In this document: piece after piece, positions 2 to 15,275 of the stretch
How positions within the stretch are numbered: position 1 is the stretch's first letter
Layout of the letters: every line of letters begins with the position of its first letter
Source of the DNA: a candidate division WOR-3 bacterium
Lineage (GTDB): Bacteria; Hydrothermota; Tepidihabitantia; Tepidihabitantales; DTDR01
DNA: 16,173 nt
Assembly (NCBI GenBank): GCA_039801885.1
Contig: JBDRVN010000041.1
Location: 1 to 16,173, forward strand
Direction of reading: 5' to 3'
Translations under genes and position numbers: made by a program
The notes under the pieces: model-generated
Database searches by the model: none
What the model was told of the DNA's origin: nothing
Seen by the model: the letters and a program-made list of their open reading frames with translations, nothing else

Positions 2-163
2 TCAACAATTAAAGAAGAGAATAAGAAAATCACCTATTTTGAAAAATATTATAATGAAATCTTTGATATAACCGGCAAAAAAATCAAACACCAAAAAATT
101 TCTTCCAAGGGTATCTATTTCTTAAAAGAAGAAAAGAGGATTAAAAAAATTGTAATTTATTAA
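2..163 (+). CDS. Partial CDS (3' end only): secreted protein with a T9SS/Por-like C-terminal sorting tail
   Basis: Not in the ORF track. Frame 2 is open from the window edge: STIKEENKKITYFEKYYNEIFDITGKKIKHQKISSKGIYFLKEEKRIKKIVIY*, stop at 161-163. It carries the CTD-type motifs IFDxxGK, GIYF and terminal KKIVI. The stop overlaps the convergent gene's stop (ttaa 160-163). Confidence 0.75.
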   Translation, partial: STIKEENKKITYFEKYYNEIFDITGKKIKHQKISSKGIYFLKEEKRIKKIVIY

Positions 164-1452
164 TTTCCCTTTGTTATTCTTTTTACCAAAAGAATTCTCA
201 AAATAGTAGTGAAGTTAGTAAGAAAGGCTAAAAGGATTATCGAAAGAAAAGACTGATTAAAGATGGAGAAAAGGAAGATTAAAAATAGTCTTATATCCCG
301 ACTTAAAGGAATTAAAGGATGAGAAATATCTTGAGAAAATAATAATCTTTCTTTATCCTTTAATATCATCGACATATTAGAACCGATAATTGCTAAAAAG
401 GCAAAGAAAAAAATCCAAATTTGATTAGTCTTTAAATAATGAGAAAAGGTAATTGCGGAAATAATTATTGTGTCGCTGTATCGGTCAAAAAGGGCATCTA
501 AGTAGGCACCAAATTTAGTTGTTGCCAATTTTATCCTTGCTATTTCGCCATCAACACCATCCAAAATAGAAACAAACTGAACTAATAAACCACCAAGGAT
601 ATTAGAAAAGAAAAAGATAAAAGAAGCAACAATTGTTAAGAGAAAATTGATAATAGTGATGGTTAAGGGCTTAATATTACACCAACAGAAAAATTTGGTA
701 AATAACTTAGAAATCCTGCGGTTAATTATCCTACTAATTATTCCATCTTCTTTTTTACCACAATTATTTAAAAGATAATTACTTACCCATTTTTTACTTT
801 CTTTATCATTCACATTAAAGACATATTCCTTTTTCTTAATAAAGAAAGTCTTTAACTTCTCTTTCTTTAAAAATTCTTTTATTAAATAACTAAGCTCTAT
901 TTCTTCTTCTAACAATTCTTTTTGGAAACTAAAGCCATTCTTTTCTAAAAAGAAAATTCCGCAATCTATCCCATCGAAATCTTCCAAATCCTTACCAATA
1001 TCAACAATAAAATTATCAACAATCTTTACTTTTGTCTCTTTTTCTAAATTATTTAATAGATTTAAGTTGTTATGAACTACCATTAATGGTGCTTCTTCTT
1101 TTAAAACCCTTTCAATAATTTCTGGTGAATAGATATGGTCAGCCATTAATAAAAGGAACTTCTCTTTTTCTTTAAGCAAATTAATTCCACAAAGGAAAGA
1201 AGCGCCATTACCTTTGTGATATTTCTCATTATAGACAAATTGGAAATTTATATCTTTAAATTTCTTTCTTAAATATTTTTCTATTAGCTCTCCTTTATAA
1301 CCAAGGACAACAATTATCTCTTTAATTCCAACTTTTATTAAAGGAATAATCACCCTCTCAATTAAAGAAAGTCCGAGCACCTTATGAAGAGGTTTTGGTA
1401 AAGAAGAGTTCATTCTTTCACCCTTCCCGGCTGCCAAAATAATCGCCTTCAT
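160..1452 (-). CDS. spsI: Bifunctional CTP:inositol-1-phosphate cytidylyltransferase / di-myo-inositol-phosphate-phosphate synthase (IPCT/DIPPS)
   Basis: N-terminal NTP-transferase domain (AIILAAGKGERM..PKPL, LLMADH, IGKDLEDFDGIDCGIF). DIPPS-type linker DGIISRIINRRIS. C-terminal membrane domain with the CDP-alcohol phosphotransferase motif DGVDGEIAR-x8-GAYLDALFD. Confidence 0.85.
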   Translation of the reverse strand: MKAIILAAGKGERMNSSLPKPLHKVLGLSLIERVIIPLIKVGIKEIIVVLGYKGELIEKYLRKKFKDINFQFVYNEKYHKGNGASFLCGINLLKEKEKFLLLMADHIYSPEIIERVLKEEAPLMVVHNNLNLLNNLEKETKVKIVDNFIVDIGKDLEDFDGIDCGIFFLEKNGFSFQKELLEEEIELSYLIKEFLKKEKLKTFFIKKKEYVFNVNDKESKKWVSNYLLNNCGKKEDGIISRIINRRISKLFTKFFCWCNIKPLTITIINFLLTIVASFIFFFSNILGGLLVQFVSILDGVDGEIARIKLATTKFGAYLDALFDRYSDTIIISAITFSHYLKTNQIWIFFFAFLAIIGSNMSMILKDKERLLFSQDISHPLIPLSRDIRLFLIFLFSIFNQSFLSIILLAFLTNFTTILRILLVKRITKGN

Positions 1453-1483
1453 CTTAATTTTTCTCTTTCATTAATTTTTATTT

Positions 1484-1505
1484 AAGAGGTCTAAAAAGAC
1501 CTCTT
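1484..1505 (-). promoter_or_regulatory. Stem-loop in the riboswitch expression platform (possible weak terminator or spacer hairpin)
   Basis: Perfect 8-bp inverted repeat AAGAGGTC-6nt-GACCTCTT directly 3' of the aptamer. No U-tract follows on the minus strand. Confidence 0.55.
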
Positions 1506-1645
1506 TCTTTCGCCTACGGAGTTAGTTGTCGGGTTAGGCCGAAAGAGTAGCCCGGCTTATCGCCTTCACCCCAAGTCTTCCAAAAAGAAGGCAAAATATC
1601 CTCCGCTCCGCATTATCTGAAAAAATGCGGATTCGGCATCGAAAG
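1501..1645 (-). promoter_or_regulatory. Cyclic di-AMP riboswitch (ydaO/yuaA class, Rfam RF00379)
   Basis: The minus strand reads CTTTCGATGCCGAATCCGC..GCGGAGCGGAGGA..TTGGGGTGAA..GGGCTACTCTTTCGGCCTAACCCGACAACTAACTCCGTAGGCGAAAGAAAGAG. This contains the ydaO hallmark blocks GCxGAATCC, GGAGCGGxGGA, GGGGTGAA and ACCCGACAxCTAACxCCGTAxGCG in the right order. P1 pairs CTTTCG..GCC with GGCGAAAG, and loop CTCTTTC can form the pseudoknot with GAAAGAG. It lies in the 5' UTR of IPCT/DIPPS. Confidence 0.93.
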
Positions 1646-1657
1646 TCCATGTATAAT

Positions 1658-1686
1658 AATATAGGTTTTTTAAATAAAAAAATCAA
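1658..1686 (-). promoter_or_regulatory. Sigma70-type promoter for the riboswitch-IPCT/DIPPS transcript
   Basis: TTGATT (1686-1681)-N17-TATATT (1663-1658). The predicted TSS near 1651 is just upstream of the aptamer. Confidence 0.6.
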
Positions 1687-1780: not shown

Positions 1781-1876
1781 ATGATGGCAAATATGGTAAG
1801 ATTGATTAAAAAAATGATAAAAAACAAACTAAAAAAGGAGGTATTAAAGGAGTTATATCTTTCTCTTAAAAGTTAA
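1781..1876 (+). CDS. Putative small basic peptide (31 aa)
   Basis: MMANMVRLIKKMIKNKLKKEVLKELYLSLKS*. SD AGGAG lies 6 nt upstream and an ECF-like promoter precedes it. No recognisable homology. Confidence 0.35.
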   Translation: MMANMVRLIKKMIKNKLKKEVLKELYLSLKS

Positions 1877-2176: not shown

Positions 2177-2683
2177 ATGTTTTTTACCTTGATTTTTTAT
2201 TTATTCTCCTCAACCGAGATTGGCTTATTATTAGGTGACCAGACCCCTTTTGGTAGATTAAAAAGATATTTCTATCCCACCCCTTCCTTTTCTTTAGAAT
2301 TATCAAAAGAAAGTAAATTTTCTGATTTTGGTTTATCTTTCACCTATTCCTGTTTTAAAAATCAATATTCTTCTCTCTATTTTCTGAAACCCCAGATTTT
2401 TTTTGAACCCTCTTTTTTAACAATTAAAAATAAAAAAGGGAAATTATTTTTCGCTCTTTCTTATCTTTATTTAATAAGAGAAGTCTATTGGGAAAAGAAA
2501 ACAAAAGAAAGCGGTAATTATTTTAATTACAATTTTGGTCTTGGTTATAAAGAGAAATTAAAGAAAATCAATTTTAAAATAAGAATTTTCCTTTCGCTTA
2601 TTCCGGAAAGACTGGAATTTGAAAAAGAAAGTAATTTTTATTATCTTTTAAATTCCCAAATTGGTGTTGGCTATGAATTTTAA
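2177..2683 (+). CDS. Small outer-membrane beta-barrel protein (hypothetical)
   Basis: Short hydrophobic N-terminal signal, alternating aromatic/polar beta-strand pattern (FGLSFTY, YNFGLGY), and a C-terminal beta-signal ending in Phe (QIGVGYEF). Confidence 0.6.
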   Translation: MFFTLIFYLFSSTEIGLLLGDQTPFGRLKRYFYPTPSFSLELSKESKFSDFGLSFTYSCFKNQYSSLYFLKPQIFFEPSFLTIKNKKGKLFFALSYLYLIREVYWEKKTKESGNYFNYNFGLGYKEKLKKINFKIRIFLSLIPERLEFEKESNFYYLLNSQIGVGYEF

Positions 2684-3263
2684 AAAATCCCTTTTATTTT
2701 TATTTCTATTTATCTTTTGCCAAAAAGATAGTTTGTTAAACAGAACAACCGGTGATTATTTCCCCTTGGAAAAGGGAAAAACTTATTACTATTATTCAAC
2801 TTTAGAAGATACCATCCAATTTAAGTTTGTTGGCGATACCTTTCTCTTTGGCACTAATCTTTTTTATTGTGAAAGAAATATTGAACCGATATTTTTTATA
2901 AAAGAAAAGTTTTCTATTAAAAAATTTGTCTGTAAAGAGACATTAATTTTTGGCGAGATTGAGACCTTATACAAAGGTTTTATTAATTTTCTCTCTTTTC
3001 CTTTGATTGAAAATAAAGAATTTAAAGATTCAATTATTAATGACACAATAAAATTCTATTTTCTTGGTAAAGTCTTAAAAAGGGATAATTTAGAAGTTCC
3101 CTATGGCAAATTTTCTGATGTCTATTCAATAATTATCAAAGAAAAGGAGATTATTGGTGAAAATAAAGATTCTTTAATTTACCTTTATTATTTAGCACCG
3201 GAAATAGGAATTATTAAGAAAGAGTATAATAATCATTACGAAATCCTCTGTCGCATAGAGTAA
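2673..3263 (+). CDS. Putative lipoprotein (DUF3108/TapB-like beta-sheet family)
   Basis: The more likely start is ATG 2673 (the ORF track starts at TTG 2661). MNFKKSLLFLFLFIF-C is a lipoprotein-like signal. Motifs DYFPLEKG..YYY, VPYGKF and YLAPEIGIIK. Confidence 0.6.
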   Translation: MNFKKSLLFLFLFIFCQKDSLLNRTTGDYFPLEKGKTYYYYSTLEDTIQFKFVGDTFLFGTNLFYCERNIEPIFFIKEKFSIKKFVCKETLIFGEIETLYKGFINFLSFPLIENKEFKDSIINDTIKFYFLGKVLKRDNLEVPYGKFSDVYSIIIKEKEIIGENKDSLIYLYYLAPEIGIIKKEYNNHYEILCRIE

Positions 3264-9709: not shown

Positions 9710-11092
9710 TTATCCTTTAGGGTATAGATATTTTTGAATAAATTCTTCCCTTATTCTTTTTAATTCTTCTTTCGGAATTAATCTTAAAAGTCCCCAACCA
9801 ATATTTAATGTTTCTTCAATACTTCTATTTTCGTATTCACCTTGGCTAACAAATTTTTTTTCAAATTCTTCGGCAAAATGAAGATAAATTTTATCTAATT
9901 CAGTTAATGCTGCCTCTCCTAAAATCACTTCTAATTCTTCGGCTTCTTTACCTTTGGCATAGCAGGCAAACAACTGATTTGCTAAATCAGCGTGGTCTTC
10001 CCTTGTCTTTCCTTTACCAATACCTTTATCCCTTAATCGTGATAAGGAAGGAAGCACATCAATTGGTGGAAAAACTTTTTTCCTTTGTAAACTTCTTGAT
10101 AAAATTATTTGTCCTTCGGTAATATAACCGGTTAAATCAGGAATCGGATGGGTTTTATCATCTTCCGGCATCGTTAATATTGGCATCAAAGTTATTGAAC
10201 CTTTCTTTCCTTTTATCCTTCCGCATCTTTCATAAATTGATGCTAAATCAGTATAAAGATAACCAGGATAACCTCTTCTTCCGGGAACCTCTTTCCTGGC
10301 AGCAGAAATTTCTCTCAAGGCTTCGCAGTAATTGGTCATATCAGTTAAGATAACTAATACATGGATATCTAAATCAAAAGCCAAATATTCCGCAGCAGTT
10401 AAGGTTGCTCTTGGTGTTGCGATTCTTTCAATTGCTGGTTCATCAGCCAGATTTAAGAAAAGGACGCTCCTTTCTAAAGCGCCGCTCTTTTCAAAACTGT
10501 CAATAAAGAAATTTGCTTCTTCAAAGGTTATCCCCATCGCACCAAAAACAACCGCAAATTCTTCTTCTTTTCCTAAAACCCTTGCTTGTCGGGCAATTTG
10601 AGCAGCCAAAAGGTTGTGAGGAAGTCCTGAGCCAGAAAAGATAGGTAATTTTTGACCTCTTACTAAGGTATTTAAACCATCAATAGCGGAGATACCCGTT
10701 TGAATAAACTCATTAGGATATTCTCGGGCATAAGGATTAATTGGTGCACCATTAATATCTCTTTCTATTTCCGGTATAATTTCTGGACCGCCATCCCTTA
10801 CCCTTCCTAAACCATCAAAAATTCTTCCTAAGATATCTTTGGATAATCCAATTTTTATTGTTTCACCAAGAAATCTAATTTTAGTTTCTTCTAAATCAAT
10901 ACCTCTTGTTCCTTCAAACACTTGCACCAATGCCTTATCTTCATAAACTTCTAAAACCTGACCAAATCTCCTTTCCTTTTCACCAACAATAATCTCTACC
11001 AATTCCAAATATTTAGCGCCTTCTACCCCTTTAATTAAAATCAAGGGTCCGGAAATTTCGCTAATCTTTTTGTGATATTTTATTTCAAACAT
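9710..11092 (-). CDS. atpB: V/A-type ATP synthase subunit B
   Basis: [64 protein letters not shown] and [16 protein letters not shown]. Confidence 0.97.
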
Positions 11093-13153: not shown

Positions 13154-14121
13154 TCTTTTGGCAACTTTTCTTTTATTTTTAAATAATAAATTTTAGAAAG
13201 ATTATCAATCTCATTATCTCTTTGCCAGTAATAAGCACATAACAATTCGCAACTGAAAATTAAATATTTAGTAAAATTGGTTAGAGATAATAACCTTTTT
13301 CTAAAAAGATTTTCTAACAAAAGAAAGTTTCCTTCTTTTTCATAATCAATTATGCCTTCTTTTATTATTAGAGAATAATCTCCTTTAAATAAAAGAGAAA
13401 TCTTTTCCCAATCAGTTTTCAAAATCTCATAATAAAAGGGAAAATCATAAAAAGAATAAGGTAGTAAATGGAAATAAAAATCTTTTTCTAAAATATCTAC
13501 TCCTTTTCTTTTTATCCGGAAACTGGTTAAAAGATTTTTCTGGGTAGCCTTCTCTCGAAAGTAAAGTTTTAAAAACTCACTATTTTGGGTATATTCATAA
13601 GCTAAAGAGAACATCTTTTTGTCTAAAAAGATATCTAAAAGATTTAGATTTTTTACTTCTTCAAAATAAGAAAATGTTTCTTTTATTAATTCTTTTATTT
13701 TTAATAAATATTCGTTTTCAATTTTTATTTGAAAGATATTTTTCAAAATATTTATGGGAATTGCTGAAAAACGTGAGAAATATAAAGAAAAATCCTTTTT
13801 CAAAATCTCTCCTTTTAAATAAAGTTTAAGATTGTGTAAATCATACTCAAAAAGAATTGTGTAATAGAGCCAATCGTCTAAAGAATAATTTTTAAAAAAT
13901 TGATAATTTTCCAGTTGGGCATTCCATAAAACTATTGAAATTTCTTCGGCTAAAAATTTTTGATAACTTGTCTCTTTTAAATAATCTAAAAAAGATTTTT
14001 CATCTTCTCTATTTAGTAAATTTTCAAAATCCTCTTTTTTCAAAAGTTCTTTCTCCCGAAAACGAATCCGACCAGAAACAAAAGCATATTTGGAATCTTC
14101 TCTGAATTTAACTGGTTCCAT
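13126..14121 (-). CDS. atpC: V/A-type ATP synthase subunit C
   Basis: YAFVSGRIRFREKELL..LKETSY N-terminus, YDLHNLK, and YYWQRDNEIDNL C-terminal motif. 331 aa, upstream of F-A-B. Confidence 0.85.
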   Translation of the reverse strand: MEPVKFREDSKYAFVSGRIRFREKELLKKEDFENLLNREDEKSFLDYLKETSYQKFLAEEISIVLWNAQLENYQFFKNYSLDDWLYYTILFEYDLHNLKLYLKGEILKKDFSLYFSRFSAIPINILKNIFQIKIENEYLLKIKELIKETFSYFEEVKNLNLLDIFLDKKMFSLAYEYTQNSEFLKLYFREKATQKNLLTSFRIKRKGVDILEKDFYFHLLPYSFYDFPFYYEILKTDWEKISLLFKGDYSLIIKEGIIDYEKEGNFLLLENLFRKRLLSLTNFTKYLIFSCELLCAYYWQRDNEIDNLSKIYYLKIKEKLPKEWVAKLLVI

Positions 14122-14130
14122 TAGATTGAT

Positions 14131-14158
14131 ATTATAACAATTTACTTCTAAAAATCAA
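14131..14158 (-). promoter_or_regulatory. Sigma70 promoter (extended -10) for the C-F-A-B operon
   Basis: TTGATT (14158-14153)-N16-TATAAT (14136-14131) with a TGn extension. The ATG is 9 nt downstream of the -10 box and there is no SD. Confidence 0.65.
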
Positions 14159-14167
14159 TTTTTTTAT

Positions 14168-14173
14168 TATAAT
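14168..14173 (+). promoter_or_regulatory. -10 element for a leaderless thiL transcript
   Basis: TATAAT 5 nt upstream of ATG 14179. No SD, and the -35 box is unclear. Confidence 0.55.
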
Positions 14174-14178
14174 TTAGT

Positions 14179-15096
14179 ATGCTTTGGAGCGAACTTAAAG
14201 CAATTGAATTCTTAAAAAATTTAAGCAATAAAATTGGTGATGATTGTGCTGTTTTAGAAAAAGGAATAATTGTTACCACTGATGCCTTTATTGAAGGTAC
14301 CCATTTTGAATTAAAATATTTCTCCTTTTCTGATATCGCCAAAAAAAGTTTTTCTGCTACCCTTTCGGATATTGCGGCAATGGCTGGAATACCAAAATAT
14401 CTTTTTATTGCCTTTTTATATCCTTCCTATTTAAAAGAGAAAGATTTTAAAGAAATTTATAATACCTATAAAAATTTGGCGAAAAAATATAAAGTAGAAA
14501 TTGCCGGTGGTGATATTGTAAAGAGCGAGAAATTGGGAATAGTTTTAACCTGCCTTGGTTATGCTAAAAAACCGATTTTAAGAAGCACTGCTAAAATTGG
14601 TGATAAGGTTTATCTTACTGGTTTTCTTGCCCTTTCGGAAACCGGTCGATTGGCATTGAAATATAATTTAGATAGAAAGAAATTTAAATGGGCAATAAAA
14701 AAACATTTAAACCCTGAACCAAGAATTAAATTGGCACAAGAATTAAAAAATAAAATAAATTCCTTAATTGATACTTCTGATGGCCTTGCTTGCGACACCT
14801 ACAATTTGGCAAATGTTAGTAAAGTAAAAATTGAAATTGATTTTAATAAATTACCAATCGCCGAAGAGACATATTTATTATGTAAAAAATTGAATTTAGA
14901 TTTAAAAGAATTTATCCTAAAAAGTGGCGAAGATTTTGAATTGCTTTTTACTGCCAATAGAAAGATTCCCAAAGAAATAGATAAAATAAAAATAAGTGAA
15001 ATTGGTGTTGTAAAAAAAGGGAGAGGCGTTTATTTAATAAAAGAAAATAAGAAAGAAAAAATTTTTCCAATTGGTTATCAGCATATTGGAGAATAA
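14179..15096 (+). CDS. thiL: Thiamine-monophosphate kinase
   Basis: IGDDCAV, TTDAFIEGTHF, LSDIAAMAG, GGD, IDTSDGL, GEDFELLFT and C-terminal GYQH. Confidence 0.95.
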   Translation: MLWSELKAIEFLKNLSNKIGDDCAVLEKGIIVTTDAFIEGTHFELKYFSFSDIAKKSFSATLSDIAAMAGIPKYLFIAFLYPSYLKEKDFKEIYNTYKNLAKKYKVEIAGGDIVKSEKLGIVLTCLGYAKKPILRSTAKIGDKVYLTGFLALSETGRLALKYNLDRKKFKWAIKKHLNPEPRIKLAQELKNKINSLIDTSDGLACDTYNLANVSKVKIEIDFNKLPIAEETYLLCKKLNLDLKEFILKSGEDFELLFTANRKIPKEIDKIKISEIGVVKKGRGVYLIKENKKEKIFPIGYQHIGE

Positions 15097-15234: not shown

Positions 15235-15275
15235 GAAAATAAAAAGGGCGAGAAAAACCTCGCCCTTCCTTTTAT
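15235..15275 (-). terminator. Rho-independent terminator, probably bidirectional
   Basis: 9-bp stem AAGGGCGAG (15244-15252) / CTCGCCCTT (15259-15267). The minus strand continues TTTATTTTC and the plus strand continues CCTTTTATT. It lies between convergent genes. Confidence 0.85.

Follow-up and report, generated by a model that had tools for sequence, protein, structure and literature searches.

A c-di-AMP riboswitch aptamer directly upstream of a fused IPCT/DIPPS-like gene in a candidate division WOR-3 bacterium

The second messenger cyclic di-AMP (c-di-AMP) restrains the uptake of K+ and of compatible solutes, acting both through proteins and through riboswitches of the RF00379 class. The enzymes of Archaeoglobus, the Thermococcales and Thermotoga have been shown to make di-myo-inositol-phosphate phosphate (DIPP), and the archaeal genes for making di-myo-inositol phosphate (DIP) are heat-shock regulated. 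We know of no described case in which a c-di-AMP riboswitch controls the making of a compatible solute de novo. Here we describe contig JBDRVN010000041.1 of a candidate division WOR-3 bacterium (16,173 nt, analysed over its whole length and called the window below), in which a c-di-AMP riboswitch aptamer lies directly before a gene for a protein, P0001, that resembles the fused inositol-1-phosphate cytidylyltransferase/DIPP synthase (IPCT/DIPPS).

Two groups of described riboswitches bear most closely on this locus. The ydaO/kimA and yuaA/ktrAB switches of Bacillus subtilis are like the window in aptamer family (over the full model), in 5′-leader position and in strand, and a theme of K+ and osmolyte homeostasis is common to both, as far as the available text of PMC10636490 goes. 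The B. subtilis switches precede transporters, whereas the window gene is of a biosynthetic type, for an inositol-phosphate solute; the Bacillus switches work through termination of transcription (PMC10636490, in the part available), whereas the window aptamer has no U-tailed terminator; and Bacillus is a Firmicute, whereas the host of the window is a WOR-3-type diderm. For nlpC of Corynebacterium glutamicum, which encodes a cell-wall peptidase, the portions of PMC9960051 drawn on here propose a translational, terminator-less switch with a GGAG/CUCC stem near the aptamer. The window has in the corresponding place an AGAGG/CCUCU hairpin after P1 and a weak Shine-Dalgarno (SD)-like box, and in both systems the mechanism is proposed only; the window hairpin is predicted in both states. 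In the parts of PMC10636490 and PMC9960051 that we draw on, the role given to c-di-AMP riboswitches is that of OFF switches acting on K+ uptake genes, and all characterised members are so described.

On the side of the enzyme, the IPCT/DIPPS proteins of Archaeoglobus fulgidus (PDB 4MND) and the Thermococcales (NCBIfam NF041135) have the same two-domain fusion and both of the signatures found in P0001. P0001 is about 33% identical to the proteins of the Archaeoglobus and Thermococcus loci, with a sub-cutoff score and a place in a separate clade, and its locus differs from theirs in lacking an adjacent MIPS (myo-inositol-1-phosphate synthase) gene and in standing behind a riboswitch. A second comparison is offered by the alternative inositol-lipid cluster of Bacteroides vulgatus and Prevotella, members of the Fibrobacteres–Chlorobi–Bacteroidetes (FCB) group, in which the same two enzyme superfamilies occur and a CDP-inositol intermediate is proposed; there the two are separate genes, accompanied by an HAD gene and beside MIPS, and the lipid product is proposed and unconfirmed (PMC9246714, in the sections available). 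The window has one fused gene, with no HAD and no MIPS gene.

The whole window, which is the entire contig, was scanned with cmscan against 4227 Rfam families. The sole match at the gathering threshold is RF00379, the c-di-AMP riboswitch (ydaO/kimA class), at 1648–1496 on the minus strand, with 59.0 bits against a gathering cutoff of 38, an E-value of 9.9e-12 and coverage of model positions 1–134 of 134. A permissive rescan of bases 1–2300 gave an E-value of 1.4e-12 for the same match and no second or tandem riboswitch in those bases, the only other return being sub-threshold noise (RF04343, 25.4 bits against 55.8). An earlier note on this DNA had placed a complete ydaO-class aptamer at 1645–1501 on this strand and had pointed to the RF00379 covariance model as the way to check it; the full-length match, above its cutoff and at agreeing coordinates, bears that placement out.

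All of the base pairs in the six enforced Rfam helices are G-C, A-U or G-U (23/23), and the pseudo-symmetric RF00379 helix set, consisting of P1, the long-range helix and the inner hairpins, is able to form; the long-range helix carries a compensated A-U in place of a G-C. The aptamer has two insertions relative to the Rfam consensus, one of 14 nt in P2 and one of 15 nt at 1580–1594 (minus strand). The latter stands where the model has a seventh helix of 2 bp, which is flagged as non-canonical here; it has a small local hairpin of its own, formed with 1579–1575, and is also complementary to the start-codon region. The G+C content of the aptamer is 49%, in a window of 30.6%, as expected of a maintained structured RNA. 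The aptamer is on the same strand as the gene and immediately 5′ of it, ending at 1496, which is 44 nt from the ATG at 1452. It is therefore a member of the RF00379 family sitting directly before the gene, and the RNA leader would be expected from its sequence to bind c-di-AMP.

The gene occupies 160–1452 on the minus strand and encodes the 430 amino acids of P0001. It is monocistronic, because a convergent open reading frame (ORF; 2–163, plus strand), the 3′ end of a gene of which 53 aa are present and which is open at the contig edge, abuts its stop codon and bounds the riboswitch-controlled unit. The Pfam matches in P0001 are NTP_transf_3 (PF12804) at residues 3–119 (E 1.8e-18) and CDP-OH_P_transf (PF01066) at residues 262–382 (E 2.6e-10), and the NCBIfam model NF041135 for bifunctional IPCT/DIPPS aligns from end to end, with P0001 residues 1–425 on profile positions 1–418 of 419 (284.8 bits, E 1.1e-84). 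The next NCBIfam models are far behind, with archaetidylinositol phosphate synthase at 83 bits and phosphatidylinositol phosphate (PIP) synthase at 54.5 bits. Among structures, residues 1–413 align with residues 41–439 of the A. fulgidus IPCT/DIPPS (4mnd_A, E 1.1e-54), residues 1–192 with an isolated IPCT (2xme_A, E 4.2e-26) and residues 191–426 with AF2299 (4o6m, E 5.5e-31).

Both catalytic signatures are intact. The cytosolic nucleotidyltransferase (IPCT) domain, approximately residues 1–230 (763–1452, minus strand; matched by NTP_transf_3 and 2xme_A), has the GxGxR motif (G9, G11, R13) and K20. The membrane (DIPPS) domain has the CDP-alcohol phosphotransferase signature D298-x2-D301-G302-x2-A305-R306-x8-G315-x3-D319-x3-D323 (484–561, minus strand), which is seen in the sequence within the PF01066 match and conforms to the motif as quoted in the available part of PMC9246714. 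All twelve of these residues are invariant in an alignment of 25 sequences. P0001 is, as judged from these sequence matches, a full-length fused IPCT/DIPPS homologue, as the earlier note had read it, and its product would be DIPP, leading to DIP.

We propose that the gene is transcribed alone, with a working c-di-AMP riboswitch as its 5′ leader, and that its product is a bifunctional enzyme. The IPCT activity would use CTP to activate L-myo-inositol-1-phosphate, and the DIPPS activity would join the activated inositol-phosphate to another molecule of inositol-1-phosphate. Together these steps would be the route by which the cell commits itself to DIP, an anionic compatible solute. Binding of c-di-AMP would lower expression of the gene, so that synthesis of the solute would be shut off by the same signal that stops the uptake of K+ and osmolytes. 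The best explanation of the locus, and one that we consider moderately probable from its sequence, is thus a c-di-AMP riboswitch of the OFF type that works by other means than termination and controls a bifunctional IPCT/DIPPS gene of the DIP type. An OFF switch is favoured because the characterised members of the class are all OFF and because the C. glutamicum case offers a proposed precedent that is terminator-less.

The leader was examined for the elements that such control would need. A promoter-like site, TTGATT-17 nt-TATATT, lies upstream at 1658–1686 (minus strand) with 9/12 matches, and the transcript start predicted from it, near 1651, is about 3 nt ahead of the aptamer. It resembles the three best promoter sites of the window (10–11 of 12 matches), which are all intergenic and have TTGAYT-16-TATAAT in common (2144–2171 on the plus strand, 9651–9624 and 14158–14131 on the minus strand). 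Sites of this kind are no commoner than in shuffled sequence, with 4 against 3.0 expected in 1400–2250 and 74 against 68.7 in the whole window. A promoter before the aptamer is accordingly plausible on sequence grounds; the sigma70 promoter of the earlier note stands insofar as a site of good resemblance is present in the right place, while the frequency of such sites lends it nothing.

Directly 3′ of P1, at 1484–1505 (minus strand), there is a 9-bp hairpin, AAGAGGUCU / AGACCUCUU, with the loop UUUU and a predicted energy of -13.3 kcal/mol. Its 5′ arm is SD-like (AAGAGG) and its 3′ arm anti-SD-like (CCUCUU), it is followed by an A-rich tail instead of a U-tail, and it is predicted in folds both with and without the aptamer enforced. 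As a canonical intrinsic terminator after the aptamer it was rejected, being A-tailed and not called as such. In the stretch from the aptamer to the ATG the terminator scan found no U-tailed terminator; its sole terminator-like call in 1400–2250 lies inside the aptamer (1, against 0.7 in shuffles). A canonical bidirectional U-tailed terminator, with a 13-bp stem and T-runs on both sides, is found at 15241–15270, between the convergent genes for ThiL and for a protein with a type IX secretion system (T9SS) tail, and since this organism has such terminators in use at another site, the missing one after the aptamer is informative.

The gene itself has no exact match of four or more bases to the SD core, and the nearest thing to one is a weak SD-like GAAAGAG at 1463–1469 (minus strand), 10 nt before the ATG, which can pair with CUUUC at 1645–1641 or with CUCUUUC of the aptamer; other genes of the window have AGGAGGTG or AAGGAG at a spacing of 4–8 nt. 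The lack of a U-tailed terminator and the weakness of this box suggest that control is probably exerted on translation initiation or on transcript fate, and not through classical intrinsic termination. A 5-codon upstream ORF (ATG AAA GAG AAA AAT TAA; 1454–1471, minus strand) overlaps the GAAAGAG box, with its stop codon 1 nt ahead of the main ATG, and may be a chance occurrence or part of a translational coupling.

Relatives of P0001 were sought with a profile search of genome contigs, seeded with the 25-sequence alignment, which yielded at least 563 confirmed stretches; the 80 loci examined, 30–46% identical to P0001, include no close relative. At least 944 nt of upstream sequence is present in 74 of the 80, and the other six (L032, L037, L047, L051, L064 and L068) have 162 nt or less and are hence uninformative. 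A simple regular expression for the core motif, applied to the loci of the relatives, matched the window alone, and a search of the protein collection with a spurious 50-aa ORF over the aptamer gave no candidate, a result that is uninformative either way.

Neighbouring ORFs of at least 200 aa within 3.5 kb were clustered across the 80 listed loci. One cluster is present in 44 of them, usually directly upstream and on the same strand, and two of its representatives are myo-inositol-1-phosphate synthases (PF01658, E ~3e-36); this neighbour ties the IPCT/DIPPS-like family to inositol-1-phosphate chemistry. A second cluster lies directly downstream in 16/80, and two of its representatives are DUF4202/HD-domain proteins. 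The protein concerned is about 200 aa long (L003:5275–5892, L006:3062–3670 and 14 further loci), often has MIPS upstream of the gene pair and has no counterpart in the window. Because it is an HD phosphohydrolase, it may be the DIPP phosphatase that these bacteria otherwise lack. No inositol monophosphatase (IMPase) was found among the 13 window ORFs scanned.

A quick IQ-TREE tree of 89 rows was made with midpoint rooting, its careful search being unfinished and the fragments L035, L053 and L064 having been dropped. P0001 groups in it with P0002, P0005, P0006 and P0007 (SH-aLRT 100), and then with P0009–P0012, and this group adjoins a MIPS-linked clade of Bacillota and Fischerbacteria. Archaeoglobus, Thermococcus, Thermodesulfatator and the Aquificales form a separate clade of 12 rows, a Thermotogae sequence falls in a third clade of 52 rows, and two Stahlbacteria (WOR-3) sequences are placed elsewhere. 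The window clade thus lies inside the family, between the clade with Archaeoglobus and Thermococcus and that with Thermotogae; if the reported DIPP-forming activities hold, characterised members bracket the window clade, and the same activity is favoured for P0001.

Several observations weigh against a c-di-AMP switch acting on DIP synthesis. Besides its two insertions, the aptamer has non-consensus bases at several positions that are well conserved, and the insertions lower the posterior probabilities locally. The NF041135 score of 284.8 bits is below the equivalog cutoff of 580; the model is specific to the Thermococcales, and because it was built for one archaeal order the sub-cutoff score limits a claim of exact equivalence and not membership of the family. 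The window clade is distinct from that of the Archaeoglobus and Thermococcus enzymes in the quick tree. RF00379 is found in none of the 80 listed distant IPCT/DIPPS loci (661,219 nt, both strands), a result that is also a specificity control for the scan; since 0/80 carry it, the riboswitch is not family-wide in IPCT/DIPPS genes, and its pairing with the gene is lineage-restricted at best. Within the 16,173-nt contig alone, no protein with a diadenylate cyclase (DAC) domain is present among the 13 ORFs scanned with Pfam and NCBIfam, and there is no MIPS gene in the window, where the riboswitch lies upstream of the gene and the convergent gene at the contig end lies downstream. The predicted folds give no clear OFF mechanism: enforcing the aptamer opens the AUG slightly, its probability of being unpaired rising from 0.38 to 0.53, and the complementarity of aptamer segments to the SD-like box and the AUG region is somewhat above chance, the duplex between the aptamer and the translation initiation region (TIR) having -19.3 kcal/mol, against -13.8 +/- 2.4 to 2.7 for shuffled sequences, an energy attained by 23 and by 36 of 1000 shuffles. 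These features would fit an ON switch.

The alternative that survives best keeps the riboswitch and changes the product. The enzyme would hand the inositol-phosphate group to another acceptor, such as diacylglycerol, ceramide, glycerol or another alcohol, so that what c-di-AMP adjusts would be an inositol lipid or other envelope component, which would fit the frequent association of this riboswitch class with cell-envelope genes. Heaver et al. 2022 (PMC9246714, in the available part) propose, as yet unconfirmed, that an NTP-transferase and a CDP-alcohol phosphatidyltransferase encoded near MIPS in Bacteroides and Prevotella make inositol lipids by way of CDP-inositol, and nearly all genes preceded by ydaO elements in the Actinobacteria are cell-wall related, according to the text drawn on from PMC9960051. 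A shared motif cannot reveal which acceptor the membrane domain uses, and both the place of the window clade outside the characterised hyperthermophile clade of the quick tree and the sub-cutoff NF041135 score leave room for a different product. Set against this, P0001 is one fused polypeptide that aligns from end to end with the A. fulgidus IPCT/DIPPS and the Thermococcales model, whereas the Bacteroides cluster consists of separate genes with an HAD hydrolase (PMC9246714, same portion); neither an HAD gene nor a lipid gene adjoins it in the window; and the NCBIfam lipid-synthase models score far below NF041135. On balance we regard a different acceptor as unlikely.

The next alternative keeps both the riboswitch and DIP and reverses the sign of control. 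In the ligand-free state, segments of the aptamer, namely the insertion at 1594–1580 and CUCUUUC near 1547–1541, would pair with the AUG region and GAAAGAG and so mask the start, and c-di-AMP would free it by fixing these segments within the aptamer. DIP can serve as a counter-ion to K+, and high K+, which means high c-di-AMP, would on this account induce an organic anion that balances the charge of K+. The free minimum free energy (MFE) fold does pair 1594–1581 with 1455–1444, across the AUG, and the energy of the aptamer:TIR duplex is beyond that of most shuffles. Enforcing the aptamer raises the accessibility not only of the AUG but also of positions +4 to +12 (probability unpaired from 0.43 to 0.62). 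The shifts, however, are slight, significance in the shuffle test is marginal, and the accessibility of the SD-like box moves the opposite way, from 0.76 to 0.65, with CUUUC at 1645–1641 pairing with GAAAG at 1469–1465 when the aptamer is enforced. Moreover, the local hairpin of the insertion would form first during transcription, the ON arrangement is without comparative support, and the characterised c-di-AMP riboswitches are all described as OFF in the parts of PMC10636490 and PMC9960051 cited above. The fold and complementarity results are too weak to fix a polarity, and we consider an ON switch quite unlikely; the fuller version, a first ON c-di-AMP riboswitch in which high K+ withdraws the 1594–1580 insertion and the CUCUUUC loop and induces DIP as the K+ counter-ion, is slightly more doubtful again.

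A third alternative, in which a relic aptamer, or one now drifted to a different ligand or to none, leaves the gene effectively constitutive or otherwise controlled, is very improbable: the altered conserved positions, the non-canonical 2-bp helix, the insertions with their lowered posterior probabilities, the lack of a clear expression platform in the terminator scan or the folds, the 0/80 listed relatives with the pairing and the lack of a DAC gene among the 13 window ORFs scanned would all suit it, but the score is 21 bits above the gathering cutoff with the full model covered, the six main helices are intact, and the long-range one among them has the compensated change of G-C to A-U, the G+C content is that of the structured RNA noted above, and the aptamer fills just the space that separates a plausible promoter from the ATG.

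An OFF switch for DIP synthesis, if that is what the locus holds, would be a modest departure from what has been described. The literature yielded no report that joins the c-di-AMP (ydaO) riboswitch, or c-di-AMP itself, to DIP, to IPCT/DIPPS or to inositol-phosphate synthesis, in agreement with the earlier note, which knew of no such pairing; this is provisional, since the gene lists of the Block 2010 and Nelson 2013 surveys may contain one. The few co-occurrences of c-di-AMP or its riboswitch with inositol that were met with, PMC4227106 among them (as far as its available text shows), were judged unrelated. Riboswitch class and enzyme family are both known, and what is plausibly new is the pairing, which adds a member to the regulon in a phylum new to it. 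A real pairing would widen the c-di-AMP regulon from the uptake of solutes to their synthesis, provide a testable handle on the regulation of bacterial DIP synthesis, and document c-di-AMP signalling in WOR-3, a candidate phylum without a cultured model; were the ON polarity true, there would be a direct RNA link from K+ sensing to de novo compatible-solute synthesis in an uncultivated and probably thermophilic WOR-3 bacterium. Because the pairing fits the existing paradigm and does not overturn it, the degree of surprise is moderate.

The host lineage agrees with the guess of the earlier note, a diderm of WOR-3 or FCB affinity. The nearest proteins to P0001 are P0002–P0007 (70–84% identical), of which P0005 (82%) is named as from a candidate division WOR-3 bacterium, as is the partial P0008. 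C-terminal sorting domains of the T9SS type are found in two proteins of the window, which also encodes the A, B, C and F subunits of a V/A-type ATPase.

The same note had linked the pairing to protection from heat, and here the evidence is divided. Fused IPCT/DIPPS genes are transcribed at about 2°C in hadal Thaumarchaeota (PMC7265257) and are carried by Atribacteria from cold hydrate sediments (bioRxiv 10.1101/536078), and in the parts of these two sources available both gene sets are read as osmolyte or piezolyte genes. The hosts of the fused IPCT/DIPPS-like stretches counted above, at least 563, many of them MIPS-adjacent, include Pelagibacteraceae, Nitrospina, Cytophagia, Acidobacteriota and Latescibacterota, which are not known as thermophiles, and many of the 80 examined loci belong to such lineages. 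Being present in lineages of cold habitats and in non-thermophiles, DIP genes alone do not imply heat. The pooled soluble housekeeping proteins of the window (2210 aa) have an IVYWREL fraction of 0.459 and a charged-minus-polar value of 15.5%, and the IPCT domain of P0001 ranks 19th of 85 for charged-minus-polar with an IVYWREL of 0.470, compared with 0.483 for Thermococcus and 0.374 for an equally AT-rich Pelagibacteraceae homologue. The charged-minus-polar ranges overlap, as with Nitrospina at 17.0% and Thermotogae at 13.5%. The window proteins lean thermophilic, which is suggestive only; the occurrence of the fused genes in cold and non-thermophile lineages tells against taking such genes as a sign of heat, and a role of the riboswitch-gene pairing in heat protection is conjectural.

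Other riboswitches occur in the flanks of the listed relatives: cobalamin (L002:7008–7199, L004:7273–7459 and L018:406–612), c-di-GMP-I (L040:121–207) and glycine (L069:3592–3668 and 10032–10114). In none of the listed loci does one of these elements directly precede the IPCT/DIPPS-like gene.

Divergent from the riboswitch promoter, within a 490-nt intergenic region of the window, there is a lysine-rich ORF of 31 aa (MMANMVRLIKKMIKNK...; 1781–1876, plus strand) with a strong AAGGAG at 6-nt spacing and no family assignment. Beyond it, orf168 (2177–2683) and orf200 (2661–3263), both on the plus strand and without Pfam or NCBIfam matches, precede a CitMHS/DASS-type anion transporter and HutI. The C-terminus of orf168, ...GVGYEF, resembles the terminus of an outer-membrane beta-barrel, and for orf200 there is an Atlas lead to a DUF3108-like family (score 0.93; 16% of members carry the family). 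TATAAT boxes stand just 6–10 nt before the ATG of orf168, VatC and ThiL, all of which are without an SD (2144–2177, 14121–14158 and 14160–14179), and the mRNAs of these three may be leaderless or near-leaderless; VatC and ThiL diverge from a common region of 57 nt.

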